Of a stretch of 64,000 bases of DNA, positions 11,325 through 57,236 are shown in pieces. The notes under the pieces were generated by a model that saw only the letters and a list, made by a program, of their open reading frames with translations, did not search any database and was not told the DNA's origin. A program made the position numbers and the translations under genes. The first letter of the stretch is position 1. Every line of letters starts with the position of its first letter. The DNA comes from Vulcanimicrobiota bacterium (GTDB taxonomy: Bacteria; Vulcanimicrobiota; Xenobia; Xenobiales; JADMJV01): NCBI GenBank assembly GCA_050250895.1, contig JBFWNU010000004.1, positions 558,934-622,933 of the forward strand, in the 5' to 3' direction.

Positions 11325-11375
11325 CGGTTGGCCCGGACGCTGGCGAGGCGGCCCGCGCAGTGTTACAATCTCAAA

Positions 11376-13431: not shown

Positions 13432-13981
13432 AGCCTTCACGCTGGTCGAACTGATGGTGGCCATCGGGGTCTTTCTCACCTTGATGGTGGCCACCATGTA
13501 TATCTATCAGGTGGGACTGGCCGCTGACCGCAAGTCGTCGGTTCACGGCGAGGCCTATCGGGCCACCGCCCTGGCTCTAAGCCACATCAGGGCAGAGCTG
13601 CAAGGGGCTGATGCCAACCTGTCTCTGGGAGATCCACCCCAATCTAGCCTCGACTATCGGGTACCCGACTGGCAAGATGGTCGCATCAAAGTCGATCGGC
13701 GGGGGCTACCCATCTGGAAAGCCGACCGCCGCATCTGGCTCAAACCCGACGGAACGGTGGTCCGCCAGGAGGGCGACATCGAGCGCGTGCTGTCGCGTCT
13801 GGGCGAGGGCGGCCTGCTCTTCGAGCGAATCGACGAGCAGTTGGTCAAGGTCACCATCGTGGCCAGTCTACAGGGCCCGACCGGCCGGCCAGACGACACC
13901 GCTACCCACCGTATCGAAGCCACCCTCGGCCTCTCTAAGCGACTCTTCTGGGATGACCTGACGGTGTTGCCGGCCTTCTGA
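13397..13981 (+). CDS. Prepilin-type minor pilin (PilW/GspJ-like)
   Basis: RA-FTLVELMVA. Confidence 0.8.
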   Translation: MWCGARWPGVSRAFTLVELMVAIGVFLTLMVATMYIYQVGLAADRKSSVHGEAYRATALALSHIRAELQGADANLSLGDPPQSSLDYRVPDWQDGRIKVDRRGLPIWKADRRIWLKPDGTVVRQEGDIERVLSRLGEGGLLFERIDEQLVKVTIVASLQGPTGRPDDTATHRIEATLGLSKRLFWDDLTVLPAF

Positions 13982-27563: not shown

Positions 27564-28115
27564 CTAGAATCGAGTGACCGGCGGGGATTGCTGATTGGCC
27601 AAAAACACCTTGAAGGTGACCTCGTAGAGGCTTCCGGCGGCGTCGCTGGTGAGGCGAATCTCCACCATGCCCTGGGTTGGCTGGTTGAAAGAGGCCTCCC
27701 CACGCTCTCCCAGTCGAGCCAGCAGCCGGGTCCGCCCGGCATCATCTTCGTGAACCAGGTTGGTCCCCTCCAGTCGAATCTTTTGACTGGCTCCCCAGCG
27801 GGGAGCACCCCATTGATCCACCTCAAGCAGCTCGTCGTTCTTGAGGGGCGGTTGAAACTCGAGCTCGGTGGCAGCCGGGTCCCCCACTTTGGGAGCGACC
27901 AGTTCGCTCCCCCGCAGCAGCCGCTGGATGTGCCCCACGCCGAGCATAGCCGCCCGGTAAGCCTGGCTGTGAACGTCTTGCTTGGCCGAGGCCTGAAAGC
28001 TGAGGCGGTAGGCAGCCAGAGTCATCACCGTCAGCATGGCGAAGATGGCGCTGGCCACCAGCACCTCGGCCAGGGTCAGCCCTCGGCGAGTTACTCGCGG
28101 AGCAAACGCGTCCAC
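27564..28115 (-). CDS. Prepilin-type minor pilin (PilW-like); paralog of 13397-13981
   Basis: RRG-LTLAEVLVA; shared K..VH..AYRA motif. Confidence 0.8.
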   Translation of the reverse strand: MDAFAPRVTRRGLTLAEVLVASAIFAMLTVMTLAAYRLSFQASAKQDVHSQAYRAAMLGVGHIQRLLRGSELVAPKVGDPAATELEFQPPLKNDELLEVDQWGAPRWGASQKIRLEGTNLVHEDDAGRTRLLARLGERGEASFNQPTQGMVEIRLTSDAAGSLYEVTFKVFLANQQSPPVTRF

Positions 28116-28468
28116 AGCCTGTAGTTCTGCTCGGCCTGATCGTCGGTCCAGAACACCCGCACCTCGACCCGCTTGAGGTCGGGATCCTCCACCACCTCGG
28201 CGACCTCGACCTCGAAACCCGGGGTGGTCGAGGCTGCTCTGGGTCGACCGGTGCTGGTCTCGAAGTCATCCTTTAGTGATTGCTCGACCTCGCTCAACAC
28301 GGTAGAGGCCACCAGGCTGGCGGTATGACGCTGGGTTGACTTGCTCTGAGTAGAGAGGGCGAAGGTCTGCATCGAGAGCGTTCCCAGCAAAGCGATGGAA
28401 AGCACGGCCATGGCCACCAGCACCTCGGCCAGGGTGAAAGCCCGCTCAGTAGCTGGCCATCGGCACAT
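28091..28468 (-). CDS. Prepilin-type minor pilin (PilV-like); paralog of 12946-13431
   Basis: RA-FTLAEVLVA; shared QRH.AS..A and FEVEV motifs; start uncertain. Confidence 0.8.
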   Translation of the reverse strand: MCRWPATERAFTLAEVLVAMAVLSIALLGTLSMQTFALSTQSKSTQRHTASLVASTVLSEVEQSLKDDFETSTGRPRAASTTPGFEVEVAEVVEDPDLKRVEVRVFWTDDQAEQNYRLWTRLLRE

Positions 28469-30116
28469 AGCGGCTCCCTCCCGTGTTGCGATAGCCTCCC
28501 CCGATGATCTGCGTCTGGACGTTGAAAAATCCGTCATCGACGATCAGGTTGCCGTGGCCGTCGTAACGCTGTCTAGGCAGGGGCGGCAAGGCCTCGTAGT
28601 CGCGCTCAAGAGAATACTGGGTGTCGGGGGCCGAAGGGTCGAGCGACTTGATCAGCCGGCGGCCCTGGGCGTCGATGCCCAGCGAGTCGATACGAGTGTT
28701 GATACCCCCCGACGGAGTGGCCCGTCCACTGGCGTCGTAATGGGCAGCCTGGGCCGGAGGGATCGGCTTCCACTGGCCGTCTTCCAGGCGAAACAGGGTG
28801 TCGGCCGCGCCCGGATGCTCGCGTGAGGCCCAATAGACGGCGTGCAGACCGCTGTCGATGTTGGCCTCGGCGTGGCCCGTGTGCGGCGAGTAGCCGTCCT
28901 CTTTGACCAGGCCGGACTCGGTGTAATACTCGCGTGGCACCGGTGGCAGCGGGTCCCAGCCGGTGTCGGTCTTGCGATAGAGCACGTCGCGGCCGTCGGG
29001 CTCGCCCCACTGGGCATAGACCTCGGCATCCTGGTCTCCGGTCAGATTGAACAACACCTTGGGAAGCCCTGGTGCACCGACCAACTCTCCGGCGTCGTTA
29101 TAGTGCTGACTGGGAGGAGGCGGCAAGGCATCCCAACTGTTGGAATTGAAGTCGTATTGCAGCAGCATGTCGCCCCCCTGGCGCATGCAAGCTACATGGA
29201 GATGGTCATCGGAAGCGTGCATCTTGGCCAACAGGCCAGGGGCCTGGAAGCCTCCCGGTCGCACGATGTTGCCCGAGGCGTCGTAGTCCATCTTGGGAAT
29301 GGGTGGCAAAGCCTCCCAATTGGCCGAGTCGACGTTGAACTTCAAGATGGTCGACCGCCCCACAATGGCGTCCCAGATCGGACCAGCGCCGGCAGCCTCG
29401 GCCATGCCTGCCAGAGCGTAGATGTGGCCGGCCCCGTCCTGGGCGGCCATGTCGCCTTCGACCAGGCCGCGCACCAGATTGGTGAGAGGGTCATCCCCTT
29501 CGAGAAAGGCGTAGGAGGCGGCGAACAGGTTGCCGTGATTGTCGGCGCTCAAGAAGAAGAGGCTGTTGCAGTACTCGCCCGGCACCTGGTGCAAGTTTCC
29601 ATCCGAGGAGTAATACTGTAGCGGGGCCGGAGGGATCAGCTGCCAATCGGGCTCATCCCCGGTGCGATAGAAGATGGAGTCGGGATTGTTGGCTCCCAGC
29701 ACCGGGGACTGGGCGAAGGTGATCCCCTTCACGTCGGGCCGCTTGCGCACCACTCGCTCGAAGCTGCGAGCCTGACCGCGCCGGCCCTCGATGTAGGCCA
29801 GACCGTGGACGTGAAAAAGTCTGGGGTTGTCGGGGTCGACGGTGGCCCAGGCCTCGAGTTTCAAGCCGTCCTCCTCCTCGGTGTAGGGCGTGGCCTCGCT
29901 GTAGCTCTCGAAGGCCTCGTCCTGGTTGAGCAGCAAGATGGCCTTGTTGGTCACGGCCCGAGCCGCCTGGAGCCAGCGTGTCTCTTCAGCCTCGCGCTGG
30001 GTCAGGCGCAGGTTGATCGAGGCCTGCTGGGCGGCCACCGTGCCCAGCACGAAAAGCAAGAGCACGATAAATAGGGCGATAGGAATCGCCATGCCCTTGC
30101 GCCCCGGGAGTGTCAT
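28446..30116 (-). CDS. Large minor pilin (PilX-like) with six WxxLPPxP repeats
   Basis: RKG-MAIPIALFIVL; paralog of 11376-13055. Confidence 0.8.
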   Translation of the reverse strand: MTLPGRKGMAIPIALFIVLLLFVLGTVAAQQASINLRLTQREAEETRWLQAARAVTNKAILLLNQDEAFESYSEATPYTEEEDGLKLEAWATVDPDNPRLFHVHGLAYIEGRRGQARSFERVVRKRPDVKGITFAQSPVLGANNPDSIFYRTGDEPDWQLIPPAPLQYYSSDGNLHQVPGEYCNSLFFLSADNHGNLFAASYAFLEGDDPLTNLVRGLVEGDMAAQDGAGHIYALAGMAEAAGAGPIWDAIVGRSTILKFNVDSANWEALPPIPKMDYDASGNIVRPGGFQAPGLLAKMHASDDHLHVACMRQGGDMLLQYDFNSNSWDALPPPPSQHYNDAGELVGAPGLPKVLFNLTGDQDAEVYAQWGEPDGRDVLYRKTDTGWDPLPPVPREYYTESGLVKEDGYSPHTGHAEANIDSGLHAVYWASREHPGAADTLFRLEDGQWKPIPPAQAAHYDASGRATPSGGINTRIDSLGIDAQGRRLIKSLDPSAPDTQYSLERDYEALPPLPRQRYDGHGNLIVDDGFFNVQTQIIGGGYRNTGGSRYVPMASY

Positions 30117-30697: not shown

Positions 30698-32017
30698 ATG
30701 AAGCTGCGGGACCTGGCCGACTTTCTCGACCAGATTCAAGAAGGCCATGTCGACTCCCACGGCGTGTTCACCCTGGACTGGTCGCGGGCCCAGGAGAAGC
30801 TGGCCAAATATCAAGCCGAGGCGCCCGGGTTGTGGCTGCTCAAGCTGTTGCAGTTTGCGGTGGCTCACGACTCCGAGTATTTTCTGGTGAAGGTGCGATT
30901 CGACACGACGGTTGTCGAGTTCAAGGCGCCAGCGGAGGGAGCCATCGAAGCGTTGACTACCCTCGACCCGGTCGGATGTTCTTCCCTCGACCATCTCCAG
31001 GTCGGAGTTCAGTCGCTGTGCACCGTCCCCAAGAGCGAAGCCACTCTGGCCTTCGGTGACCGAGAATACCCATTGAGAAACGGAGTGCTCATCGAACCTG
31101 GCGAGCCTCTCAAACGCCCCCTGGCTCACTTTCGCATCACCCGCCGCTGGAAATCAACCGGCCGCGGGCGGTTGTTCGACTATTTCGGGAACAGCCGGGT
31201 GCACCTGGATGAGTCGCTGTTTCTTCAAGAGATGGGTCGCTTCGCCCCCACCAGGCTTCTTTACGATGGGCGCCTGCTCAACGACCCCGTGGTCAACAAG
31301 CCGCCGGCGCTCCGGCTTGGGGTCTGGGTCGGACCGTTCCAACGCCGCCCGCGACCGGCCATCCCCTACGCTACCCTCGAGCGCATCGTGCTGACCCGAG
31401 CGCCCATGGAGCAGCGCCTGGTGGTCGCCGACCACAGCCTGCGCAGTCCAGAGTTTCTGGTGACCGACCACAACGCCTATCGCGTGAATGGCTACCACGC
31501 CTTCGTGCAGGAGTGGCAAATGGAGGATGGGCAGATCGAGTGCCGGCCTGACAAACTCAGAGAGTTTCTGCGCTCGTTGAGACCCCACTACAACTTTTTC
31601 ACCTCTCGCATCGAGCGAGCCGATGGCGAGACCGAACTCTGGTATGATTACAATCGTGGCCTGCCGGCCCTGAGTGCGCGCGGTTATCTGTCGCTTGACC
31701 TTGGCCAGGACCGGGAAGGCCGCCTTTATCTGGTGCATCACGGGGTGTGCATGAAGCACCGGCCGCTGGGCCCCAAGTTCAAGGGGTGTCTGGCGATCTG
31801 GAGTGTTCCCGAGGTACACACCGACCTGAGCCAGTTGCAGGTGCTCGACGACGAACTCTACGCCTCCATTCTGGCCACCGTCCAATCCCACTTCTCCGAG
31901 GCGGCGGCCACCCTGGTGCGCATAGCGGAGGAGCCCCGCGACCTTTGGCACCGCTATCAACGCCCGCTCGACGACATGCTCCTGGCCCGAGCCAGGGGGT
32001 TGGCCGAGAACAAATAA
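30698..32017 (+). CDS. Hypothetical protein with a degenerate GHKL/HSP90-like N-terminus
   Basis: SHGVFTLDWSRAQEKLAKYQ...WLLKLLQFAVA; paralog of 41690-42820. Confidence 0.65.
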   Translation: MKLRDLADFLDQIQEGHVDSHGVFTLDWSRAQEKLAKYQAEAPGLWLLKLLQFAVAHDSEYFLVKVRFDTTVVEFKAPAEGAIEALTTLDPVGCSSLDHLQVGVQSLCTVPKSEATLAFGDREYPLRNGVLIEPGEPLKRPLAHFRITRRWKSTGRGRLFDYFGNSRVHLDESLFLQEMGRFAPTRLLYDGRLLNDPVVNKPPALRLGVWVGPFQRRPRPAIPYATLERIVLTRAPMEQRLVVADHSLRSPEFLVTDHNAYRVNGYHAFVQEWQMEDGQIECRPDKLREFLRSLRPHYNFFTSRIERADGETELWYDYNRGLPALSARGYLSLDLGQDREGRLYLVHHGVCMKHRPLGPKFKGCLAIWSVPEVHTDLSQLQVLDDELYASILATVQSHFSEAAATLVRIAEEPRDLWHRYQRPLDDMLLARARGLAENK

Positions 32018-32045
32018 AAAAACCACCCGGAGGCGACCCGGGTGG
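32016..32045 (-). terminator. Intrinsic terminator of the 34343-32055 operon
   Basis: CCACCCGG/CCGGGTGG stem with T7 on the minus strand. Confidence 0.75.
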
Positions 32046-32054
32046 CGAGGAGAT

Positions 32055-33188
32055 TCACTTCTTGGCGTTGGACCACAAGACTTTGTTGTCTTCGCCAAGG
32101 ACTCGGAGGTTTTCCACACCGTTGACCTTGATTTGGCTGCCTCCTTTCCCCTGAGAGTAGAGTACTTTTCCGTCGGCTCCGACCAGGGAAAAGTTCTGGC
32201 CGTTGCCGTTGATGTCGGCTGAATCCTTACCAAGCCCGCCATTGAGAGAGACCTTGTCGCGGCCCTGGCTGACGTCGTAGGTCAGATGATCGTTGCCCCA
32301 GCCTCCATTCATCTCGATTTTGTCGTTGCCCCGGCCGCCGCCGGCGCGAAGTTCATCGTTACCCAGTCCTCCTTTCTGGACGATATGATCGTTGCCGTTG
32401 CCGCCCGAGGCGGCCAGTTTATCATTGCCCCATCCTCCTCTTTGTTCGATGTCGTCGCGGCCGCGGCCGCCGGTAGCCAATTGCTCATCGTTGCCCAGGC
32501 CACCGCGCTGGCGGATCCGGTCACTACCGTCGCCACCGTCGGCCACTTGCTGGTCGTTGCCCAGGCCGCCGTGCTGGTCGATGCGATCCCGGCCGCGCCC
32601 GCCCAGCCCGACCTGGAAGTCGTCGCCCCAGCCGCCGCGCTGGCTGATGTGGTCGTTGCCGCCATCACCGGAGGCATACTGCTGATCGCGTCCCAGGCCA
32701 CCCCGCTGGTGGATGTGGTCGTTGCCGCCGCCAGTCACGGCGGCCTGCAGGTCGTCACCCAGGCCGCCGCGCTGGTGCACACGATCGGCCCCGGCGCTGC
32801 CGCCGGCAATCTGGGTGTCGCTGCCCCAACTGCCACCCTGCGAGACCCGCCCGCCGTTGGTGTTGACCTGATAAGGGCCTTTGAACCCCTCGGGGTTGGC
32901 CACCGCCAGAGCTGACGAGCCGTTGTGGGCGGTAGCCGCGGCGGTGCCGTCATTGGCCGCCGCCAGGGCGAAGTTGAAGCCGCCCATAATGTCGTTGAGG
33001 TTGCGGTTGAGTAGCTGATTGATGGTGAACTTGCCGTTCTGGTTCCAGCCCAGCGACAGCCCCAGGGCGGTGCCACCCGGGCCGGCCTGGGCCAGGGCCC
33101 CGGCCGAGTTGGCCGTCGACCCGGCCGCGGCCGTGCCCTTGTTCTCGGCCTGGGTGAAGGCCAGCGGAAGTTGGTTAGCGATCAACAT
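32055..33188 (-). CDS. Gly-rich protein with 11-aa GGxGxD (RTX/curlin-like) repeats
   Basis: About 15 units such as GGLGNDQQVAD and GGDGSDRIRQR; AAGGAG RBS. Confidence 0.85.
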   Translation of the reverse strand: MLIANQLPLAFTQAENKGTAAAGSTANSAGALAQAGPGGTALGLSLGWNQNGKFTINQLLNRNLNDIMGGFNFALAAANDGTAAATAHNGSSALAVANPEGFKGPYQVNTNGGRVSQGGSWGSDTQIAGGSAGADRVHQRGGLGDDLQAAVTGGGNDHIHQRGGLGRDQQYASGDGGNDHISQRGGWGDDFQVGLGGRGRDRIDQHGGLGNDQQVADGGDGSDRIRQRGGLGNDEQLATGGRGRDDIEQRGGWGNDKLAASGGNGNDHIVQKGGLGNDELRAGGGRGNDKIEMNGGWGNDHLTYDVSQGRDKVSLNGGLGKDSADINGNGQNFSLVGADGKVLYSQGKGGSQIKVNGVENLRVLGEDNKVLWSNAKK

Positions 33189-33198
33189 GGCGTGCTCC

Positions 33199-33357
33199 TT
33201 ACTTGTGACGAATCTCGATGACGATCTCGCCGGGGCCGGCCACCGCCTCGGCTTTGGCTCCCCCTGAAGCCGAGGCGATGGCGATCGATCCCTGGCAGTG
33301 CTCTGGCATGACCAGAGGCCGGCTGGCTAGCAGTTTCTTGATCCACTCGCGATCCAT
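33199..33357 (-). CDS. 52-aa protein absent from the ORF track: MDREWIKKLLASRPLVMPEHCQGSIAIASASGGAKAEAVAGPGEIVIEIRHK
   Basis: ATG overlaps the upstream TAA (TAATG), its stop overlaps the RBS of the next gene, and it shares ASGG/AGPG motifs with both neighbours. Confidence 0.75.
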   Translation of the reverse strand: MDREWIKKLLASRPLVMPEHCQGSIAIASASGGAKAEAVAGPGEIVIEIRHK

Positions 33358-34343
33358 TAGCGACCTCCCGCATTGCTGTCGGCACGACCGAACAAGAGGG
33401 CGTCGGCCACGGCTCCACCGCCCCAGTCGGCCCGGCTGCGGGCTGACGAGAACAGGTCGGCGCGAGCCACCGAGTTGGAGCCGTGGAAAGCGCTGGCATC
33501 GGCACTCGACCAGTCATCGGCCTGAGCGGCGGCCCCGCTCCGATTGGCGGCCAGGGCGTTGGCGCTGGAACGGTCGTCGGCGTCGGCGAAGGCCTGGGAG
33601 TGGAAGTCGGCTCGACTGGTAGCCCGCGAGCCGTCGTCGGCTACCGCATCGGCCCGAGACAGGCCGGTAGCGTGGGCGCGAGCGCTGGAATGGTCGGAGG
33701 CGAAGGCGTTGGCCAGCGAGTCGATGCTGGGGCCGGTCGAGCTGTCGTCGGCGATGGCGGTGGCGTTGGAGTGGTTGATGGCGCCAGCGTTGGCAAACGA
33801 GGCCACGTTGGCGTTCGAGTCCGCCCGGGAATGGTTGATGGCGTTGGCCGTGGCGCCCGAGCCGGCGTTGGCCCTGGCATTGGCCGAGGAGAACCAGTCG
33901 GCGTTGGAGCTGGCGCTGGAGTTGTTGGTGGCGGTCGAGGTGGCCCGCGACAGGTCGTCGGCCCTGGCCGAGGCGCTCGAGTTGTTGCTGGCCGTGGCCC
34001 GCGAGCTGGACAGGTCGGTGGCTCGGGAGACCGCCGTCGAGTTGTTGGAGGCGCTGGCGTTCGAGCTGCTATGATTGGCCGCCGAGGCGACCGAGGTGGA
34101 GCCGTTTCGGGCCGTCGAGGTGGCCGAGCTGCCGCCGCTGGCGCTCGACACGGCCAGGTTGCCGCCGCTCATCGCGTTGCTCAGCACGCTGTTGATGCCA
34201 GAGTTGACGGCCCAGCCCGATTTCCAGGGCAGCCCGGAGCCACCGGCCTGGGTCGAGGCGGCGCCGCCGGTCTGAGTGGGAGCGGCCACGCGAGCGGTGG
34301 GGCGGGCGGTCTGGGCGGGAGAGTTCTGAATTGCTAGAGCCAT
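33357..34343 (-). CDS. Ser/Ala/Asn-rich protein with about 25 decapeptide repeats (predicted beta-solenoid)
   Basis: NNSSASARAD/DLSRATSTAT/NHSRADSNAN periodicity; AAGGAGG RBS. Confidence 0.85.
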   Translation of the reverse strand: MALAIQNSPAQTARPTARVAAPTQTGGAASTQAGGSGLPWKSGWAVNSGINSVLSNAMSGGNLAVSSASGGSSATSTARNGSTSVASAANHSSSNASASNNSTAVSRATDLSSSRATASNNSSASARADDLSRATSTATNNSSASSNADWFSSANARANAGSGATANAINHSRADSNANVASFANAGAINHSNATAIADDSSTGPSIDSLANAFASDHSSARAHATGLSRADAVADDGSRATSRADFHSQAFADADDRSSANALAANRSGAAAQADDWSSADASAFHGSNSVARADLFSSARSRADWGGGAVADALLFGRADSNAGGR

Positions 34344-34380
34344 TTGTTTGGCCTCCTTCGGTGTTGTTTAACTTGGTCAC

Positions 34381-34455
34381 AGAATAGGCCACCGCATGAC
34401 GTGCTCGATAAAATCGGATCAAAAATTGTAAACGGCATGTAAACTTCAGGTGAAA
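34381..34455 (-). promoter_or_regulatory. TTTCACC-N4-GTTTACA-N4-GTTTACA-N11-GATTTTATCG-N19-TATTCT
   Basis: Spacing identical to 42835-42898. Confidence 0.6.
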
Positions 34456-34658
34456 CTTGCAGGCGGGGTTGGCTGAGATACCTGAGAAAACGGAGCAGCA
34501 CCCACCGGGGGAGCCCCGGCTTCGATCACCGCAACATTGACCAAACAGGCCGCCACGGCACTTGCCGGGGACCGAGCCTACCACAGGACTCGAGTCGGCT
34601 GGGAAGAAATCAGAGACCGTGTTTGCGAGGTCGGGGCGACGACGCAAACGGGGAGGTC

Positions 34659-35162
34659 ATGGAACTTCAACTGAATGACGCATTGTCTCTATTGGGAGCG
34701 GTGGTAACGGTGGCTCTCACCATTTTCATGATGACGCGCGTGCCGAAGCCGGCCGGCAACGCACCGAGAGCGACCTTTCCGGCCCCGAAGAACATTCGTA
34801 TGGGGCGTCACCCCATCTTGAGGACCCAGGAGGCCGGCCTGGATCTGGTGCGACACAAGCAACAGATGCACTTTGAGTATCAGGGAAAGCGGGTGCAAGT
34901 CGAAGCCAAGGGTAACGCCGAGGTTCTGATCCTGATGCTGTGGAGCGCCATCGAGAGCCAGGGGTCGCCCGCCGTTCCGACCGAAACCGGTCCAGGGATC
35001 TGGCACTGGCGGTGGACCTTCGGAGGCGGGACCAGTGACGTCGGTCCGGAATTGATCCACTATGATACGGGAGAGGCGCAGGTGACTCTCGATGCTTCTG
35101 GAGCCCTCCTGACTCTCGAGACGGTCAAGGAGTCTCGTGCGCGACCGAGTGGGCCGCCGTAG
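34659..35162 (+). CDS. Hypothetical protein with an N-terminal TM
   Basis: GGAGG RBS before ATG 34659. Confidence 0.55.
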   Translation: MELQLNDALSLLGAVVTVALTIFMMTRVPKPAGNAPRATFPAPKNIRMGRHPILRTQEAGLDLVRHKQQMHFEYQGKRVQVEAKGNAEVLILMLWSAIESQGSPAVPTETGPGIWHWRWTFGGGTSDVGPELIHYDTGEAQVTLDASGALLTLETVKESRARPSGPP

Positions 35163-35167
35163 ACCTG

Positions 35168-35349
35168 ACGTGCCCAACCGACTCTGGGCTTGACGTCCAT
35201 CAAGTGGTCTTTTACCGCCGCGGCGGGTCTACCGTGCCAGACAACCTGATCGTGGTCTGTTGGTCTGCCACGCCAACGGGCGCGACCTGGAACGGGAAGA
35301 ACCGGTAGGAGTCATCGATTGGCTAGCGCCCTCGCCCAGGACTGGATGA
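35168..35349 (+). pseudogene. Frameshifted C-terminal remnant of an HNH endonuclease, homologous to 37625-38683
   Basis: LDVHQVVFYRRGGSTVPDNLIVVC and GRDLEREEPVGVIDWL versus LDVHHVVFYCRGGPTVPENLVVVC and GRELERERESGLLEWL. Confidence 0.8.
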
Positions 35350-35473
35350 CGGTTCCGAAGGACGGATGGGTTCCGCCCGCAAGCCCGGACGATGATGCGG
35401 GGTTACTCTCTCCCCGCAGAACCGAACGGACGGCTACACGGATACCCTTTGTCAATACAACGGAGGTACTGCG

Positions 35474-35695
35474 ATGATAAAAACGTTAACCAAGCATGGG
35501 AACAGTCACGCCTTGATCCTCGACCGCGCCATAATGGAATTACTCGAGATTGACGGCAATACGCCGATCAAGATCACTACGGACGGGAAACAGCTCATCC
35601 TGACGCCGATTCGCGAGCCTCAAACGGACCTAAAGAAAGCCCTTACCCGGGTGAACCAACGTCACGGTGGAGCCCTCCGGCGTCTGGCCGAGTAG
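35474..35695 (+). CDS. AbrB/MazE-family antitoxin with no adjacent toxin
   Basis: KTLTKHGNSHALIL...ITTDG..LILTP; GGAGG RBS. Confidence 0.85.
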   Translation: MIKTLTKHGNSHALILDRAIMELLEIDGNTPIKITTDGKQLILTPIREPQTDLKKALTRVNQRHGGALRRLAE

Positions 35696-35767
35696 TTCGT
35701 CTTCAGGGGTCGATGACTGGCGTTCTACCCTGACGGAGAAAATCGGCCGTGGCAACCTTATCGACCA

Positions 35768-35967
35768 CCCAGGCGACCTGCGGGCTGTAGACGTCCGGCC
35801 CACGGCTCCAACGGCAAGCCTCGCGCAGTGCCCTCGCAACCCGAGCGAGTCCCCACGGCGATCCGCCGTTGAGAATGGGTGCAATGCCTTGGAAACGCCA
35901 ATTTGGAGACTCGGATGCGACCGATGGCATCCTCCTTGGCGCCCTTTTGGAGCTGCAAGACTAAGGG
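35768..35967. repeat. 200-bp sequence duplicated in two pieces at 40347-40470 and 40938-41025
   Basis: First 124 nt differ at 3 positions; second part has an 11-nt indel and a few substitutions. Confidence 0.9.
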
Positions 35968-36049
35968 TCTGTCAGTAAGAGTCGCATTCCGGGTGTCGAG
36001 GCGCCCCTGTGGCAAGGCGCGTCTGACCGCGCATATGGCAATATGTAAG

Positions 36050-36713
36050 GGAAGCGCAACGCAGCCCCAGACTGAACTTGTCGAGACGAAAGAATTTTTT
36101 GAGAATCTCAACGGCTTGTGGATAGGACATTTGGCTGGCAAGCAGGGCCATCACTTCTTGAAGGTCAGGTAGGGCGCTGTGCTTGCCGTCTAGGCCCGCA
36201 GAAGGTCGAGAGGAACGGCAGAGTGACCACAATCGCCGTGGTAGGCGCGCTGGATCTGGATCTGGCCGAGTTTGGTCTTCACCGATTTCTTGACATCCCC
36301 CTGGAACTCGAGCTCCTGATCGCAGTCGTGGCAGCACATACGGCTGCGGTAGAACCCTTGATAATGCCCCAAGACGGCCTCCATCAGCCCGCGCCCGAGT
36401 GAGAAGACGACCTCAGGGATGAATTCCTGGAGGAGTCCGGGAAGCTCCTTCTCTTGGTTGCGAACGAGCGCTTCATTAAAGCGAAGGAATACGGTGCGAA
36501 AGCATTCCCCCGCTAGCGAGACTATCTGGTTCCAGAGGCGGTCGGCACGGCGGGGTAGTCCGACGCGCGGACCCGGGCCATTTCACGTTAGATGGGCTGC
36601 GGTTCGGCAGCCATTCGGGACTTACACTGAGTCGACTGTTCCGTAGGATTTTCGGGGATTCGATCGCGAACTTTACCGCTCGGCGTTGCACTGGCAATCG
36701 GGATGATATTCAT
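36050..36713 (-). pseudogene. Degenerate ISKra4-family transposase (N-terminal part)
   Basis: C..C.....FQG...KSVKTKLG.I.I.RAY...CGH...PLD, a frameshift, then LQEVMALLASQMSYPQAVEIL; GAGGAGG RBS before ATG 36713. Confidence 0.7.
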
Positions 36714-36858
36714 TGTTGGCCTCCTCTTGAAGTGGGTGTTTTAGTCTACAGTCAACTTCAAGTTCGGAGGCCATTTCCTTGCCCTTCGAGAGGATCAAAC
36801 CCCACAAAATGACGTCCCAGAGGGTTTACCGAGAAATCGGATCAGCAACCAATAGCAC

Positions 36859-36887
36859 TTGACAATACGTGATCGGAAAACTACTAT
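36859..36887 (+). promoter_or_regulatory. Sigma70-type promoter TTGACA-N17-TACTAT, leaderless to ATG 36894
   Basis: Consensus -35 with canonical spacing. Confidence 0.75.
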
Positions 36888-36893
36888 CGCATC

Positions 36894-37367
36894 ATGTCTC
36901 GCAGTGACGTTATCTGTGCGTGTTGCCATCAGGAAGTGTATCGAAGCGATGAAACGTACGCGGGCCTATCCGGTGGTGCTTGCATCGAACTCGACCTCGA
37001 TGAAGATCTTGAGCTATACCGAAGACTTGTGCAAAGGGCCTCAGGTTTTCTCGAAATCTGGTGGCGCTCACCCTATTCCAAGGGCGAAGGGGGCAGTCTT
37101 GAGAAGGCGAAGATTGTTGAAGATGGGCATCACGGTCAATTCGATTTGGCTTTCTGTTCCACGATTTGTCTTCGTTCCTACTTGAATTCACGCGTGGATG
37201 CTCTCGAGGGCGTTGTCCAAAGTTGGTATCTAAGTCGTGTTCGGTTCACCCTGGAGCAAGGGGATGATTCAAAGGCGATCAGCGAATGGCAGAGCTATTT
37301 CGGGTGCTCTCGACAAGAGGCCGAGGAAGTTGTTGCGAATTTGAAAGACGGCAATACTTCACAGTAG
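36894..37367 (+). CDS. Hypothetical protein with Cys pairs
   Basis: CACC...FCSTICL; strong promoter upstream; lower GC. Confidence 0.65.
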   Translation: MSRSDVICACCHQEVYRSDETYAGLSGGACIELDLDEDLELYRRLVQRASGFLEIWWRSPYSKGEGGSLEKAKIVEDGHHGQFDLAFCSTICLRSYLNSRVDALEGVVQSWYLSRVRFTLEQGDDSKAISEWQSYFGCSRQEAEEVVANLKDGNTSQ

Positions 37368-37467
37368 CGTTCTCCTTCGTAACTGAACGCACCGTGGCGC
37401 TGGCGCGCCCTTTGCCCCAAGAGCGCTCGTCAGGGCCGCGAGGCAGAGGCAAAGACTGCAACGGAGA

Positions 37468-37496
37468 AGGGCGTGACCGTCGCCGAAAGGCGCTCG
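37468..37496. repeat. 29-bp direct repeat, left copy (right copy 39489-39517)
   Basis: AGGGCGTGAsCGTCGCyGAAAGGCGCTCG, 2 mismatches. Confidence 0.8.
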
Positions 37497-37624
37497 GGCG
37501 CAGTTCAGACCACGTTGAACCTGATGGAACTGCGAACGAAACGAGCGCGCCCGGGGGCGACGGCTCAGCGACCCCCACAGCCAGAAAAGGTCTGGTATCG
37601 GGGGTACTTCTCCGTCGCCGCAAC

Positions 37625-38683
37625 TTAGCCAGCTCGAGCCCATTCCAGCAGCCATTCCAATAGCCCGCTCTCTCGCTCGCGTTCAAGCTCGCGCCCGCGA
37701 CGGTCGCGCCAGACCAGCCCCTGGGGAGCAACCCCGCTCACTTGCAGGATGCCTTTGTGGATGTTCTTGTGGCAGCGCGAGCACACCACGACGAGATTCT
37801 CTGGCACCGTCGGTCCGCCCCGACAGTAAAAGACTACGTGATGCACATCGAGCCAGAGTCGGTGCGGGCAACCCGGACAAGAGCAGCGGTAGCCATCCCG
37901 CCGCAGCACGGCCCGGCGCTGGGCGGAAGTCGCCTGCCGCTTGCTGGGATTGAACCTCAACCGACCGGCCAACTGCAACTTCGTCTCGCCCGGACACACG
38001 TGTGTCTGCATTGCCAGCGCCTCGACCGGAGCGACCAGGTCCTGGGCGGCTTCAACCTTGAGTTGCTCCACCTGGCCGCCCAGAAAGTCGGCCAGGATCC
38101 ATTCGAACGCCTCGGCCGGATTGACCGTGCCGCCGTTGTCTCTCGAGATTACGGTCACCGCTCGCGACCACAGCTCGGACACCTCGGGAGCGACCCGAAA
38201 ACGAAGCTCGACCTCTTCTACCATATTCAGGGCCGCCTCGGCCGGAGTGTCACCGCGATTGGCCCCGCTCACTAAACGAGCCAGGCGATGAGGCTTGAGG
38301 CGCACCGCCAGGTCAAGCCAGGCCTCTTCGGTCTCGGGCGTCACGATGCGGGTGACTACGCGCAGGTTGGACCAGCAGATTCGGTTCTCTTCGCAGGCTT
38401 TGGAAAACAGCGGCAGCTCTTCGAGATGGCCGGCGATCCGCATCGAATCTAGTGCCTCGCGCTTCTCTACTTTGATCAGCCGGGCGAAATGGATAGCCGA
38501 GTGGCAGCCGGTCTCGGCGCAAAAATCGGTGCGCTCGATAACCAATAGACATCGTCCCAGCAGGATGCGAGTCAGGGCCAGGGTGTTGGCCAGGCGACGG
38601 ATCACCCTTTCCAGCCGCTCGTGAGGGAGCTTGCTCAAGTTTTCGACGGTCCAGAATTCGCGTTGCTTTTGATCGGTAATCAT
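37625..38683 (-). CDS. HNH endonuclease with a DUF222-like N-terminal region
   Basis: RRAVLRRDGYRCSCPGC...LDVHHV....GG.T...NL...C.RCH..IH.G; TTGACG-N18-TATCAT-N6-ATG places the start at 38683. Confidence 0.88.
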   Translation of the reverse strand: MITDQKQREFWTVENLSKLPHERLERVIRRLANTLALTRILLGRCLLVIERTDFCAETGCHSAIHFARLIKVEKREALDSMRIAGHLEELPLFSKACEENRICWSNLRVVTRIVTPETEEAWLDLAVRLKPHRLARLVSGANRGDTPAEAALNMVEEVELRFRVAPEVSELWSRAVTVISRDNGGTVNPAEAFEWILADFLGGQVEQLKVEAAQDLVAPVEALAMQTHVCPGETKLQLAGRLRFNPSKRQATSAQRRAVLRRDGYRCSCPGCPHRLWLDVHHVVFYCRGGPTVPENLVVVCSRCHKNIHKGILQVSGVAPQGLVWRDRRGRELERERESGLLEWLLEWARAG

Positions 38684-39049
38684 AAGTCCATGATAGCCTT
38701 TGCCCCCGTTGTTCGTCAAAGATTCGATGCGGCCCAAACCCTTATTTTACAGGCAATTGCGCATTTTCTAAACGATGATTATTCGAGCTTTTCGGGGCCG
38801 AAATGAAGTTTTCTTCAAACACGGCTGTTCAAGTGCCTGAGGGGGTCCTGGAGGGGCTATCACGAGCAGTTTAGGGGCGAGGCTCCTCCCGGGCGGTTGG
38901 GCGGCCGCATCTGAAAAAAGTTTGACACACGTGTGCGCGGCGCGGGGTTAGACGATCTGGTGGAGTCGTTAGCCACGACAATGATGGCAACATGATCGCA
39001 CGGGTTCTCGACCCGAGCGGTACGCCAGCGACGACCAACTTCGAGCTGG

Positions 39050-39395
39050 ATGTTCATGAGCGTCTCAACATTTCTTCCATGTGATGGCGAGTCAAAAGCG
39101 ATTTTCAGGGCGTCAAGCTCCCGGGTATTCAGCTTGGAAAGCTGCTGTAGAAGGCCGGCTAGCTCTACGTCTTCGACCGCCATCCCAGCGATCACACCTT
39201 TATCATCCAACAGCAGTTGTTCTACGGGACTTCGAGAGCTTCGGCGACCTTTTCCAAAGTGCCCATGCGAGGATTCACACGATCCGTTTCCCAGCTGGCG
39301 ACATAACTCTGCGAAACGCCAACGAGATCAGCCAGTTCCCGCTGCTTGAGGCCTTTCTGCTTGCGGTGTTTCGCGATGATCTGACCGATGCTCAC
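39050..39395 (-). pseudogene. Frameshifted XRE-family HTH regulator (3' end approximate)
   Basis: GTG 39395 gives MSIGQIIAKHRKQKGLKQRELADLVGVSQSYVASWETDRVNPRMGTLEKVAEALEVP* (stop 39222); continues in another frame as VEQLLLDD...DVELAGLLQQLSKL. Confidence 0.8.
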
Positions 39396-39615
39396 CTCTT
39401 AGGAAATCCTGTAAGAATGACGTGACTCCTCGTAGCCTAGTCACTAAACGAAATAAGGTCGCGGTTACTCCAGGAATGTAATTACAAGAGGGCGTGAGCG
39501 TCGCTGAAAGGCGCTCGAGAGAGAGCCAACTCGCCAGATTCACCAACCCTTCCCTTCCTCGCCTTTTGCGGCTCGGCGGCCGAGTGCCGACTCCGGGAAC
39601 TTGGAGCCGCCGTGC

Positions 39616-40506
39616 CTAGATATAGAACCAGCCATCCTCTTCCTTGAGTCCGGGCCCTTCGAAAGTGAGCCGCTCCCGGACCGGTCGACCGTTGGTGTCG
39701 GTTCCGTCGTAGGGCACCGATTGGCCGTAGTGGTCGGCCAGGGTCGTTCCATCCACCCGCTCGACATAGACGGCGTGCCCAAAGCTGCTCACGACCGTGC
39801 TCTCTCCCAACAGTGGATCCTCACCCGCCATCGCTCGCACCCTGGTCTCGCTCCCCACTCCGAGATAATTGGCGCAGTGGCGCGGACGTTGACCCGAGCG
39901 CAGATCCTCGAGAGCTCGCTCGAAGCGCTGGTGCTCACTCAGCCAACCCTCGACCAACCCCATTTTCAGATCAGCCGCCGGCATCAGCTGGGCCCGTCGG
40001 GCGGCGGCCACCGCGTAGGCGAAGATGGCAAAGGTTTTGGTGGGCGAGGCCGCTCCCTTGAGGCAGGCAGAATCGCGAGCCAGGGCCACTTCTTCCTCAG
40101 TAAGACTGACCACCGCCCCGTCGCGTAGAGTGACCCGAAAGCCATCCTCGAGCCGCTTGACCGACTTGAAGAGCTTGCGACCGAACACTTTCATGGCGGC
40201 TTTGACGGTAGCCACCAACGCACAGTTTCCCTGACTGGTCTGAGCGAAGTCGACCACCAGGGCATCGGTCTCGAGAGGCAGTTGGAAGGCCTCGGCGAGC
40301 AGGCGGTCTTCCTGCTCGCTCCAATCGGGTGCAAAAACCCGGCCATCCCAGGCGAACTGCGGGCTGTAGACGTCCGGCCCACGGTTCCAACGGCAAGCCT
40401 CGCGCAGTGCCCTCGCAACCCGAGCGAGTCCCCACGGCGATCCGCCGGTGAGAATGGGTGCAATGCCTTGATACGGCAACGTTTTGAGTGCGACGCCCCC
40501 AACCAT
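39616..40506 (-). CDS. Putative papain-fold cysteine protease; 5' end doubtful because it runs into the duplicated element
   Basis: FAQTSQGNCALVATVKAAM...GHAVYV...D. Confidence 0.55.
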   Translation of the reverse strand: MVGGVALKTLPYQGIAPILTGGSPWGLARVARALREACRWNRGPDVYSPQFAWDGRVFAPDWSEQEDRLLAEAFQLPLETDALVVDFAQTSQGNCALVATVKAAMKVFGRKLFKSVKRLEDGFRVTLRDGAVVSLTEEEVALARDSACLKGAASPTKTFAIFAYAVAAARRAQLMPAADLKMGLVEGWLSEHQRFERALEDLRSGQRPRHCANYLGVGSETRVRAMAGEDPLLGESTVVSSFGHAVYVERVDGTTLADHYGQSVPYDGTDTNGRPVRERLTFEGPGLKEEDGWFYI

Positions 40507-41120
40507 TGTCGGCTATCTCACGAACTTTGCGCAACTTGTCTAGTGGGATTTACCCCCTGGTCTTCGCACGTGCCCATTTAGCGTCAACGACTGGGCGGAC
40601 GCGAGCAGACGGTCCTGCTCAAAGCCGCCGTGGTCCAGATTCTGAACTTCAATACCTCGAACGTCTTCACAAGATGAAATCAAAGTGATCTCAACAGTCG
40701 GGACATCTTTCTGGAGTACACGCACGTCCCCAGCTGGGAAGCGACAGACGAGAGCATCTGTGTGCGAGACGGTCTGGTGATCAGTGCCATTGGGCGCCTT
40801 CGTGTGGAAGCTTGTGAGCTCAAGCCGGGAGAGAACTTTTCGCCAAGTTCTCTGAAGAAGTCGCTCTCTGACATTGGGTGGCAACAGACAGAAGAGGTCT
40901 CTTTTTACAACATCATCCGAACCACCTATCTTTGCCGGGAAACGCCAATTTGGAGACTCCAGGTCAACGAGGATGCGACCGCGGGCATCTTCCTTGGCGC
41001 CCTTTTGCAGTTGCAAGACTAAGGGCCCCGCGCGCTTGCGGCTGGCACCCTCCGCCAACGTCCAATCCTCCGCGGCCCACCGCGGATCTCCGCGGTTTCC
41101 CCAAGTCGAGCGCCCACGCT

Positions 41121-41516
41121 CTAGCCGACGATACTACCGCCGGTGAAGTCGTTCTCGAGGCGGTCCATGTTGTCTTCGGTGATGCCGATCAGCTCGGCCA
41201 TCACCCGCGAGCCCTCTTCAGCCAGGCGCAACGCCTCGGCCGCTGCCTCGGGGTTGCGGTCGTGAGCGTAGCCACGCAACAGCTCGACCGCCTCATAGAC
41301 TAGCTCGAGCGAATCCTTGGCATCCTCCATCAACTGCTGCTCTTCCGGAGCCTTGTCGCCGACCTGGATCTGATCGAGCTGTTCATACCACCCTTTCACC
41401 TGGGCCTCGAACTGGTCGAGGTTGCTCAGAAAAGTGGGACCGTCGAGGTGACCCTGGTCGAACTGCTGCACCAGCGTGGCGGCGATGTGATAAGGGCTGT
41501 TGGGATACTGCTCCAC
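41121..41516 (-). CDS. Acidic helical hypothetical protein
   Basis: Clean ORF with genome-like codon usage. Confidence 0.7.
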   Translation of the reverse strand: MEQYPNSPYHIAATLVQQFDQGHLDGPTFLSNLDQFEAQVKGWYEQLDQIQVGDKAPEEQQLMEDAKDSLELVYEAVELLRGYAHDRNPEAAAEALRLAEEGSRVMAELIGITEDNMDRLENDFTGGSIVG

Positions 41517-41558
41517 CTGCCAGAACTACGGGGAACGCCCGTGCTTATCCTGGTCTGG

Positions 41559-41609
41559 TCAGGGCAAGCTGATCTGCCACGAGACGCCGAAGCGGTCGTT
41601 GAGCCACGC
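41559..41609 (-). pseudogene. C-terminal fragment of a VOC/PhnB-family gene
   Basis: Translates as AWLNDRFGVSWQISLP*; rest of the gene is absent. Confidence 0.6.
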
Positions 41610-41689
41610 ATATGGTAAACCACCCGCCAAAACCTTGCAAGCTTGAGCCTCTCGCGGGGTGAAGGGTAGCCGCTCTCGAAGGAGCCAGT

Positions 41690-42820
41690 ATGAGCCTGGA
41701 GGACTTCCTCAAAGAGCAGAGTGGCGGAGGAGGCGAATCGGGCCGATTCACCGTCAACCACGCCCGCGCCCTCGAGCTGATGCGGACCTATCAGCTACCC
41801 GAGCCTCGCGCCTACATCCTGAAGCTGGTGCAATGGGCTGTGGCTTGCCAACCCCGCCTGATCGAAGTCAGCGCGGATCGCGAGCACGTGAGCGTGCGCC
41901 ACGACGGGCAACCGGTGGCCGACGAGGTTCTGGCCGCCATCCTGGATGCCAGAGTCGACTTTCACCACCTTTCGCGAGGGCTCTACGGGGCCCTGGGGCT
42001 GGCGCCGGCCGAGCTCTGCCTGACTACGGCCGGCCGGCGCTACGAGTTGGTTTCGGGCAAGCAAGAGAAGGTGGCGGGGGAACCAGAGACGGTCACGGTC
42101 TTGGGACTGCGAAAGCGCCCTTTAGAAACGAGCCCCATGGTTCGGCGCGCCCTGCGACAGCGTTGGGCAACCATGAGCGTGGAAGGCCCTCTGCAGACCA
42201 TGATTTGGGATGCCACCGGTCTGGCCGGTCTGGAGGCGAGTCTGCTGAGAACCTTTTGTTACTGGTGCAAGGTGCCCTTGCGGTTGAATGGCAAGTTTCT
42301 CAACCGGCCGGGGGACGCCAACTTCGATTACGTCTGGGAGGATGGTGTGCTGGCCATGACCGATCACAACCTCACCCGGGGAAACAGCCTCTTCGTCTGC
42401 CACTTCGGCGAGGGACCTGCCGAGGTGCTGGCAGGCTGCCCCAGCCAAAGACTCAAGCTGGTCTGGGCCGAAGGGGAGCGGGAAATCGAACCCGAGGCCC
42501 GGGAAACGCTGCCCCACATCACCATCAACGGGGGCCCGGTAGCGGCCGCCCTGGGCTACAGCCGGCACTTTGCCGCCGCGGGCCTCGGTCGGCAAATCTA
42601 CTTCCTGAAGGATGGAGTGGTCATCGACAGCTTCAGCGAAACGTCTCGCCGCAGCAGCTTCGCGTTCTTCTCGGCCGGTCCCCTTCGGTGCGGCGCCGAC
42701 GGCTTCGGGTTGCTGCGCAACGCCGAATTCGAGGCCTACGTGGCCGAGCTGCGTCAGCGGTTGGACTTTTTCGACGCCTTCTTCGCCAAGCGCTCCAAGA
42801 CGTGGTTTCTTCCCATGTGA
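41690..42820 (+). CDS. Hypothetical protein with a degenerate GHKL-like N-terminus
   Basis: SGRFTVNHARALELMRTYQL...YILKLVQWAVA; AAGGAG RBS. Confidence 0.7.
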   Translation: MSLEDFLKEQSGGGGESGRFTVNHARALELMRTYQLPEPRAYILKLVQWAVACQPRLIEVSADREHVSVRHDGQPVADEVLAAILDARVDFHHLSRGLYGALGLAPAELCLTTAGRRYELVSGKQEKVAGEPETVTVLGLRKRPLETSPMVRRALRQRWATMSVEGPLQTMIWDATGLAGLEASLLRTFCYWCKVPLRLNGKFLNRPGDANFDYVWEDGVLAMTDHNLTRGNSLFVCHFGEGPAEVLAGCPSQRLKLVWAEGEREIEPEARETLPHITINGGPVAAALGYSRHFAAAGLGRQIYFLKDGVVIDSFSETSRRSSFAFFSAGPLRCGADGFGLLRNAEFEAYVAELRQRLDFFDAFFAKRSKTWFLPM

Positions 42821-43909: not shown

Positions 43910-43936
43910 GCAGCGGCGACTGAGAATTACTCGCCC

Positions 43937-45142
43937 ATGAGGTTCCGCTACTGGGCGTCCGCCGATGGCGGGCAGGCCCGGGATGGGGTCGTGGAAGCCC
44001 GCTCCCTGCTCGAGGCCCGTACCAAACTGTCGCGCCAGGGCTTGACGGTGCTCGTGCTCGAACCTGAGGGCCGGGTCGAGCCCGACCAGCCCGAGGCTCG
44101 CAAGCAAATGGCGGGATTGCTCTCGGCCGACGACCGCATGCTGTTCCACCTCCAGTTGTCGACTCTGCTGGCCAGCGGAGTGCCCATCGTGGAGGGGCTC
44201 GAGGTGCTCAGCCGCAGCGACTCGCCGGCCCTCAACGCGGTGGTCGAGGAGCTGTGCGTCAGGCTCTGCAAAGGTCAGACCATGGCCGCGGCCATGGCGT
44301 CCTGTGGAGCCTTCGGACCGGTCGAGATCAGTCTGGTGCAAGTGGCTGAAGAGACCGGCTCACTGGCCCAGATGTTCTCGCGCCTGGCCAGCCGATTGCG
44401 GGCCCTGGTCACGCGCCGCAATGACCTCGTCTCGGCCCTGGCCTATCCGGCCGTCATCCTGGTGGTGTGCGTGGGGCTGTTGGGGTTGCTGGTGGGCTAT
44501 ATGCTGCCTCAGTTCACCAGCATCTTCCAAAGCCTGGGCAGCGACCTGCCCTGGCTGACCCGAATGCTGTTGGGCCTGACCTCGGGGCCGTGGCTGCCGA
44601 TGGGGGCCCTGCTGGTGCTGATGGCGGGCTTCTCGCTGTGGTATTCGAGTCGCCGCGGAGGAAGCGGCCAACTGCTGCTCGAGAAGTTTCTCTACGAGGC
44701 ACCGCTGGTCGGACCGCTGGCTTTAAAGGCGCTGTTAGCCAGGCTGGGAAGCGATCTGGCCCTGATGGTCTATCTGGGTGTTCCCCTCGACAAGGCGCTG
44801 GGTCTTTTGGGGCGCCCGAGCAGCGGCTATTACTGCATGGACGAGGCCCTGCGTATGACCCGGGTCGAGCTGCAAGCCACCGGCGACCTGGCCCAGGCCT
44901 TTCGACAGTCGCCGCTCTTTCCCGAGGCCTTTGTGCAGATGGTGGTGGTGGGCCTGGAGGTGGGCCGGCTGGGCAATTTTCTCGACCAATATGCCAGGCT
45001 CGCCAACCTCGAGACCGAACTCGCCCTCGAGAACCTGTTGGGGTTGCTCGAGCCGCTCATCCTGGTGATTCTGGGCCTGGGAGTGGGTCTGGTGGTTTTG
45101 TCCGCGTTCTTACCAATGTACCAGGTGTTGTCCCAATTTTGA
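43937..45142 (+). CDS. Type II secretion system F / PilC family protein
   Basis: MRFRYWA...G.VEA, QL.TLL.SGVP, EETG.L, LAYP and LLEP motifs. Confidence 0.9.
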   Translation: MRFRYWASADGGQARDGVVEARSLLEARTKLSRQGLTVLVLEPEGRVEPDQPEARKQMAGLLSADDRMLFHLQLSTLLASGVPIVEGLEVLSRSDSPALNAVVEELCVRLCKGQTMAAAMASCGAFGPVEISLVQVAEETGSLAQMFSRLASRLRALVTRRNDLVSALAYPAVILVVCVGLLGLLVGYMLPQFTSIFQSLGSDLPWLTRMLLGLTSGPWLPMGALLVLMAGFSLWYSSRRGGSGQLLLEKFLYEAPLVGPLALKALLARLGSDLALMVYLGVPLDKALGLLGRPSSGYYCMDEALRMTRVELQATGDLAQAFRQSPLFPEAFVQMVVVGLEVGRLGNFLDQYARLANLETELALENLLGLLEPLILVILGLGVGLVVLSAFLPMYQVLSQF

Positions 45143-57191: not shown

Positions 57192-57236
57192 CCCAATAGT
57201 ATAACCCCTGAAAGTCGAATCTGCTATAATTTGGCG

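Follow-up and report, generated by a model that had tools for sequence, protein, structure and literature searches.

What do the repeat proteins of a small bacterial operon build, and do they build it inside or outside the cell? The question is raised by three tightly coupled genes, here called A, B and C, at positions 32,055 to 34,455 of a 64,000-nucleotide stretch of DNA (hereafter the window) from contig JBFWNU010000004.1 of the Vulcanimicrobiota bacterium assembly GCA_050250895.1 (genome G000). Computational analysis of the locus predicts A to form a curli-like, two-sheet beta-solenoid with a core of alanine and serine, and C to form a solenoid of the calcium-roll type. The A family is new, rare, lineage-restricted and unnamed. 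Our preferred reading—to which we give about an even chance of being correct—is that A and C are structural rods of the cell surface or the extracellular space, exported by a non-Sec route with B and/or a fourth protein, H, as helpers.

The unit comprises the following features:

33357-34343, minus strand: gene A, a decapeptide-repeat protein of 328 aa, predicted two-sheet beta-solenoid
33199-33357, minus strand: gene B, a small protein of 52 aa, translationally coupled to A
32055-33188, minus strand: gene C, 377 aa, with an A-type head, a GGxGxD roll and a C-terminal domain
34425-34454, minus strand: promoter-like site, TTCACC-18 nt-TACAAT, found by consensus scan and matching at consensus level only
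34427-34448: two 11-nt direct repeats overlapping the promoter-like site, found by a repeat finder
32012-32046, minus strand: GC-rich intrinsic terminator 3' of the C stop codon (stem of 10 pairs, 7 of them GC; loop of 5 nt; T-run)

All three open reading frames (ORFs) lie where the original prediction had placed them, between a promoter-like site and a strong terminator, which the consensus scan placed at 32022-32046. The scan returned two promoter-like sites against 0.3 expected and four terminator-like sites against 2.7 expected. GAAGGAGG stands 8 nt ahead of the ATG of A, the ATG of B overlaps the TAA stop of A in a TAATG, and an AAGGAG lies over the stop codon of B, 5 nt ahead of the ATG of C. 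With a genome GC content of ~63%, the third-position GC contents of A (0.86), B (0.75) and C (0.79) fit real genes. A-B-C is a real, well-formed operon. An Rfam scan of positions 31500-42000 found no family at E ≤ 0.1, and Tandem Repeats Finder reported only short, weak rows. Given the absence of long DNA tandem repeats, the protein repeats are of old date and maintained at the protein level; they do not stem from recent DNA duplications.

Protein A: predicted fold and family

Autocorrelation of the A residues, judged against 200 shuffles, peaked at lags 10 (z 10.4) and 20 (z 15.1), reflecting 25 in-register decapeptides of the consensus [D/S]-[N/D]-x-S-x-A-x-A/S-x-A, in line with the roughly 25 units first noted. 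Serine fills position 4 in 22 of the 25 units and alanine position 6 in 21; position 8 is alanine or serine, and position 10 alanine, in all of them. The register is broken by one 7-residue indel (residues ~199-215), and the overall composition comprises 25% alanine, 20% serine and 5.8% threonine. Ahead of the 27 strands of the solenoid lie a polar, disordered leader (residues 1-45) and a conserved amphipathic segment (~46-60).

AlphaFold2, supplied with a 6-sequence family alignment, returned a model with a mean predicted local distance difference test score (pLDDT) of 81.7 and a predicted template modelling score (pTM) of 0.75. Residues 61-328 were predicted to form 27 strands, each 6-7 residues long and separated from the next by a 3-residue turn, with a pLDDT of about 95 over residues 90-320; residues 1-60 were of low confidence, with a helix predicted at 48-60. 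The solenoid initially supposed for A was confidently predicted over residues 61-328. The 20-residue super-period fits two strands per coil, and the model suggests A to consist of ~13.5 coils of 20 residues, each holding two 7-residue strands, with a very thin core packed from S/A/A/A and D/N-x-x turns serving as arcs. A rise of 4.8 Å for each of the 27 strands would give a rigid rod about 6-7 nm long.

Structure comparison with an exhaustive aligner over 48,161 chains placed the curli subunit CsgA of Pontibacter korlensis first (8c50; Z 20.6, root-mean-square deviation (rmsd) 8.2 Å, 270 aligned residues). TibA (Z 16.4, rmsd 3.6 Å), UspA1 (Z 15.8), a tailspike (Z ~15.7) and the calcium-dependent antifreeze protein 3p4g (Z 15.7) followed. 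Structure neighbours of A in the Atlas were unnamed clusters, a ‘fibroin heavy chain-like’ arthropod cluster (TM 0.65) and pertactin-type autotransporters, which we regard as leads only; an Atlas search with A by features gave no match. Neither A nor B was assigned to a named family by Pfam (none at E ≤ 1) or NCBIfam.

The original prediction proposed functional amyloid. A subunits would stack end to end via open solenoid ends into extracellular fibres, C would share their docking end as nucleator or tip, and B would serve as a cap or as a chaperone against aggregation. The predicted architecture speaks in favour of this proposal: like curli, modelled A is a strand-arc-strand, two-sheet solenoid with polar outward faces and a tight, small-residue core, here an Ala/Ser core of the steric-zipper type. 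According to Sleutel et al. 2023 (PMC10192328), curlin repeats measure 23 ± 5 aa—a range that includes the 20-aa coil of A—and open-ended solenoids without caps polymerise. A differs, however, in having a conserved amphipathic segment before the first rung, present in all family members, that may act as a cap (the model is of low confidence there), and in lacking both a Curlin_rpt match and the N-x-psi-x-psi-x-Q motif. Moreover, the giant A paralogues (994-1321 aa) resemble single long stalks rather than polymerising subunits. Together with the points on B, C and export given below, this leads us to consider functional amyloid of this kind rather unlikely.

How widespread is A? A-type genes were found in 8 of the 16 genomes of the family and A-type matches in 17 of 301 genomes of a phylum sample. 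The latter comprise G000 and 7 of 15 further genomes of its own family, 5 of 5 genomes of the sister family, the single genome of another family and 3 of 207 genomes, all weak, of the largest family. A search with the A-family profile against 1.84 billion representative proteins yielded 114 matches at E ≤ 1e-3, of which 23 reached E ≤ 1e-10 and 3 reached E ≤ 1e-30. In 33 of the 114, the motif occurs five times or more at a spacing of exactly 10 residues; at least one of these 33 is a spurious simple repeat. Most of the top matches are giant proteins, and 10 of the 26 best matches scanned carry Planctomycete-extracellular, dockerin, Calx-beta, cadherin/Big_9, RTX or GEVED domains; two short matches carry signal peptides. 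A full-text literature search, at the level of listings and abstracts, turned up no description of the A family.

Two side observations concern the sequence itself. A 152-aa database protein, P0013, is nearly identical to the end of A over its C-terminal ~85 residues (one substitution seen), whereas its N-terminus is unrelated; strain variation, truncation or an artefact of assembly could each account for it. The only sequencing runs to share words with the stretch, at 5-6% of words, are seven DNA runs from sludge and wastewater metagenomes, and these have no bearing on habitat.

Protein C and the head it shares with A

The same autocorrelation analysis of C gave peaks at lags 11 (z 10.6) and 22 (z 19.6). 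The GGxGxD repeats that had been pointed out in C proved to be 19 units of x-G-G-x-G-x-D-x-[IQLV]-x-[AQ], with the glycine at position 5 and the aspartate at position 7 present in all 19, in a protein that is 22% glycine. An A-type module (residues 1-99) precedes these units (~118-326), and a C-terminal domain of an order-wide family follows them. A model from 8 sequences covered residues 125-377 at a pLDDT of 93-98, and in it a strand of 5 residues recurs every 11. The N-terminus went unmodelled because the alignment had no A-type rows. On this model, C is predicted to be a solenoid of the calcium-roll type with an unusual 11/22-residue unit. Its structural matches were CsgA (Z 24.1), 3p4g (Z 17.9, rmsd 3.7 Å, 20% identity), RsaA (Z 16.3) and the RTX part of CyaA (Z 14.5).

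C recalls the RTX proteins in its invariant glycines and aspartates, in a predicted flat roll that matches 3p4g (MpAFP RIV), RsaA and CyaA and is predicted to bind calcium, and in its lack of an N-terminal signal, as in type I substrates. It departs from them in a unit of 11 residues (22 per coil) versus 9 (18 per coil), that is, two extra residues per unit. The RTX nonapeptide family HemolysinCabind (PF00353) matched neither C nor any other part of G000 in a search with a positive control, and no type I exporter was found in the window. Family scans of C gave sub-threshold matches only: a weak one to DUF3060 in Pfam and, in NCBIfam, one to the SMc04171 calcium-binding repeat family (NF046115) at 17.9 bits, below the curated cut-off of 625.

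The match of both models to 3p4g bears on the idea, raised in the original prediction, of an ice- or mineral-binding solenoid, in which A or C would attach to ice or a crystal lattice through a flat and regular face. The antifreeze protein is among the better matches of A (Z 15.7) and C (Z 17.9), and both are predicted flat two-sheet solenoids. Yet a match to 3p4g is expected of any calcium-roll, and the outward positions 5, 7 and 9 of the A repeat vary (S, R, V, T, N, D and others); across the 25 units they form neither a Thr nor a Thr/Asx ladder, and threonine stands at 5.8%. An ice-binding face of A is therefore not evident, and we regard this function as highly improbable.

An N-terminal block common to A and C had also been proposed. 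Pairwise BLASTP of the two proteins was not significant (E 0.18); alignment of the A-family profile with residues 3-99 of C, on the other hand, gave an hhalign probability of 95% and an E-value of 3.2e-8 over 95 columns. The shared module begins with an M-x-x-x-I-x-N-like start, runs through a polar low-complexity stretch to a Trp, and continues with the amphipathic F-N-x-x-L-x-x-N-L-x-x-I-M-N and the first rungs, N-L-A-V-A-V-A-x-N-G-S... This profile-level similarity indicates the heads of A and C to be homologous, and such a module could give the two proteins compatible ends for joint polymerisation into an amyloid.

The remainder of C is common: its calcium-roll and C-terminal domain occur in 38 of 40 genomes of the order, and C paralogues within G000 carry other N-termini. 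No C-type fusion was found in the 39 other genomes of the order, where two weak, uninspected matches start before residue 76 (at C residues 22 and 51). Because the roll and C-terminal domain are widespread and the A-type head occurs on them only here, we interpret C as a local fusion of the head onto a common body. On this footing C cannot be an essential nucleator for the family. Nor do the three genes recur together as a system: the C fusion was found in G000 only, and B stands beside A in just 5 of the family's 8 A-positive genomes.

The small partner B and the recurring neighbour H

Gene B, hidden from the initial gene list, is real. It follows A in G001, G004, G009, G015 and G000, and in all five a Shine-Dalgarno sequence or a stop-start overlap precedes it. 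Its conserved core reads AVAVAVASGP..AKAEA..G..VEA.AGPGE.V; the copy in the window is shortened, without one hairpin and most of the N-terminal helix of its relatives. Between G009 and G015, the nonsynonymous and synonymous differences (pN/pS) amount to 0.28/0.73 for B and 0.21/0.71 for A. These comparisons indicate B to be conserved, under purifying selection like A, and translationally coupled. In the phylum sample, the B profile had strong matches (E ≤ 4e-10) in 6 of 301 genomes; a further 12 matches were counted as noise because they had E > 3e-4, lay inside larger frames or contained stops.

That a small partner gene is coupled to A counts in favour of functional amyloid, and B had been likened to one rung of the A solenoid. 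That likeness lacks statistical support: comparison of the B and A profiles was not significant (hhalign E 0.068, probability 0.8%). Prediction of an A-B complex scored 0.00, with the fold of B itself uncertain in that model, and counts neither for nor against a complex. Neither statistics nor modelling lends support to B as a rung or cap.

A different lead to the origin of B comes from genome G019, in which the slot after the A-type gene is taken by another protein:

L073, 2540-3709, minus strand: SHOCT-like plus Toastrack (DUF4097) protein of 389 aa in G019, convergent to the A-type gene

This protein matches PF22746 (E 4.7e-7) and PF13349 (E 2.5e-24), an arrangement that we take to be of the LiaX/YvlB type. 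Its first 68 residues align with the B profile at an hhalign E-value of 1.2e-4 and a probability of only 55%, and none of the 6 B proteins scanned matched PF22746 directly. B lacks the Toastrack domain, and the copy in the window most of the helix. Judged from these alignments, B may derive from the head of SHOCT-like plus Toastrack proteins, which would be a lead to its origin and not a membership.

A more constant companion of A lies outside the coordinates of the original prediction:

41121-41516, minus strand: gene H, 131 aa, pI 4.1

H proteins are of ~130 aa (here 14.7 kDa, pI 4.13) and predicted from sequence to be all-helical. An H gene and an A-type gene stand no more than 1 kb apart, in tandem, convergent or divergent orientation, at 10 loci spread over 9 genomes (G001, G003, G004, G007, G009 with two, G012, G015, G019 and, beside a giant paralogue, contig 7 of G000). 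The exceptions are the window, where H is 6.8 kb from A, and G066, where A is about 5 kb from an H-B pair. The recurring module is A plus H, joined by B in some genomes, with H as the most constant neighbour. H-family matches occur in 68 of 301 genomes of the phylum sample. No Pfam family was assigned to H, its database relatives are all unnamed, and the Atlas gave unnamed clusters only. Profile matches of H to the PDB (designed helical bundles and MIT domains, E 6e-5 to 4e-3) were rejected as helical-repeat noise.

Several observations concern the surroundings of these genes. Between A and H in the window lies an island of low GC (~35200-41100; GC 0.55-0.60 versus 0.63 elsewhere) with ORFs of low third-position GC, among them an AbrB/MazE-like gene, so called by eye (35474-35695), and an HNH gene (37625-38737) with a paralogue on contig 2, ~3.5 kb from another H paralogue. 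The island probably represents a mobile insertion by which H became separated from A. On contig 7 of G000, positions 420995-424465 (L067) encode a 994-aa giant A paralogue with the same head module, followed after 88 bp by an H paralogue and preceded by a gamma-glutamyltranspeptidase gene; this order recurs in G009 and G012. Two paralogous proteins of a family that we call K, encoded on the plus strand of the window at 30698-32017 and 41690-42820, flank the A-B-C unit and H. The K family has about 44 ORFs in G000 and no Pfam match, and given this number its adjacency to A-B-C is not specific. One K member on contig 2 adjoins an ABC-HlyD-TolC cluster as well as a protein of 532 aa that contains an H-like domain.

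Export, location and meaning

How, if at all, could these proteins leave the cell? As an indicator of Sec signals we took the highest 12-aa Kyte-Doolittle window within the first 70 aa, a measure of hydropathy and not a dedicated predictor. By this measure, no Sec-type hydrophobic segment was detected in A (0.72), B (1.34) or C (1.24), all below a pseudopilin (3.65) and a signal-peptide protein (1.81) used as controls. Nor did a Pfam scan of 56 ORFs of the window name any ABC, HlyD, OEP, csg or fap family. The original prediction, which had noted the lack both of a Sec signal and of nearby csg, fap or type I secretion genes, agrees with these results. In G000, which is 99.64% complete, CsgG (PF03783) had no matches, with controls positive in 4 genomes, and neither did the curlin repeat (PF07012), for which an E. 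coli control was positive. For comparison, the curli paper (PMC10192328) gives CsgG as present in ~98% of CsgA-bearing genomes. H and B are unrelated to CsgB, CsgC, CsgE and CsgF by Pfam and NCBIfam scans. Fap families were named by none of these scans of A, B, C and their neighbours, with no genome-wide search by Fap models. The locus is neither a curli nor a canonical RTX system nor, as far as these scans reach, a Fap one, and the missing CsgG, curlin repeat and Sec signal count further against functional amyloid.

With no signal peptide or transmembrane segment in A, B, C or H, the rod might also stay inside: A would then be a cytoplasmic scaffold in the manner of bactofilins, a beta-helical polymer or rod, the M-x-x-x-I-x-N start a targeting peptide, and H a regulator. 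The modelled order of a disordered tail followed by a solenoid core, and the conservation of the first few residues across A-type proteins and C, would suit such a role. Against it, A matches no bactofilin, pentapeptide-repeat or other Pfam family at E ≤ 1. Bactofilins have a three-sided hydrophobic core, unlike the two strands per coil and the Ala/Ser core of A. Relatives of the repeat stand in proteins with extracellular-type domains and signal peptides, and C carries a calcium-roll; RTX calcium-rolls fold poorly at cytoplasmic calcium levels. We consider a cytoplasmic scaffold unlikely.

Elsewhere in G000 there are 9 TolC-family genes, one ABC-HlyD-TolC cluster (contig 2, 940-945 kb) and two full-length FlhA-type gates (contig 1, 585691-587613 and 1458965-1460971). 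Eight further matches to the C-terminal part of FlhA were seen, as was one flagellin cluster, near the first gate. By analogy, H resembles the flagellar export chaperones FliS, FlgN and FliT in being small, acidic and helical and in lying beside a presumed client, A, with an unstructured polar N-terminus, in a genome with two FlhA-type gates. Yet FliS, FlgN and FliT matched none of 7 H proteins at E ≤ 0.1, and the H-A loci were not found beside flagellar genes. One could imagine A as the subunit of a new kind of amyloid-like extracellular fibre made without Sec, CsgG or Fap and exported unfolded through a type I channel or a flagellar-type type III gate, with H as a FliS-like chaperone, the shared head as the export or docking end, and C as a calcium-triggered nucleator or tip in this lineage. 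This composite scenario strikes us as distinctly unlikely.

Type IV filament genes are frequent around these loci. GspK-like pseudopilins lie near A or H in the window, G004 and G003, and the giant paralogues in G009, in G012 and on contig 7 of G000 have GspF-like genes no more than ~5 kb away. Such genes are very greatly expanded in G000: ORFs resembling GspF, the type IV filament platform, number 76, and matches to the T2SSF domain 149. GspF-like ORFs of the window lie at 13981-15015 and about 43910-45140 (both plus strand), and sets of GspK-like and pseudopilin genes at 11328-13981, 27564-30116 and 55023-58518. Given the 76 ORFs and no enrichment near H paralogues, a link of A and H to type IV filament genes is unproven. 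Further along the window, a protein of 1017 aa that combines WD40 propellers with a C-terminal caspase (Peptidase_C14) domain is encoded at 50844-53897 (plus strand), adjoined by large two-component regulators (44467-50803).

We return to the preferred reading of A and C as exported surface or extracellular rods. Under it, A and C would be synthesised without any Sec signal, and H and/or B would escort them or keep them from folding. The two would leave by a non-Sec route, for which a type I system is the leading candidate in the case of C, and would fold into stiff rods once outside, C in a calcium-dependent manner, to serve as surface, matrix or adhesion material. B would be a small conserved accessory protein, and H a small acidic helical protein travelling with A-type genes. 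The extracellular location is suggested by the company that the repeat keeps in other proteins, the calcium-roll of C and protein composition, and not by any linked exporter.

A number of findings weigh against this reading. A, B, C and H all lack a hydrophobic N-terminal or transmembrane segment, two controls from the window being positive, and no secretion gene shows a specific link to any of them. There is no enrichment of GspF-like genes near H paralogues: they occur within 10 kb of 4 of the 17, compared with 14% at random positions. B is absent beside A in G007, G003 and G012 and beside the giant paralogues, and H in the window is 6.8 kb upstream of A, across the low-GC island with its HNH gene. 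With 17 H-family ORFs in G000, H is not exclusive to A. As to the models, that of A was built on just 6 aligned sequences and its putative cap segment has a pLDDT of only 35-43, and Foldseek gave no match to the PDB at E ≤ 0.001 for the models of A and C alike. CsgA tops the structural matches of both A and the RTX-like C, so the match reports a flat architecture with two strands per coil, not kinship.

Biofilm biology depends centrally on beta-solenoid fibres and rods, with curli, Fap, RTX adhesins and antifreezes as examples, and such structures also find use as engineered materials. Among them, the A family would have the thinnest kind of core, built of alanine and serine, in a strict register of 10 and 20 residues, and it has no detectable tie to a known assembly or secretion system. 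The 11-residue calcium repeat predicted for C widens the known geometry of beta-rolls. Were A only a monomeric stalk, it would be a new repeat family of modest interest; should it be both exported and self-assembling, it would represent a further route to bacterial functional amyloid and a compact new scaffold.

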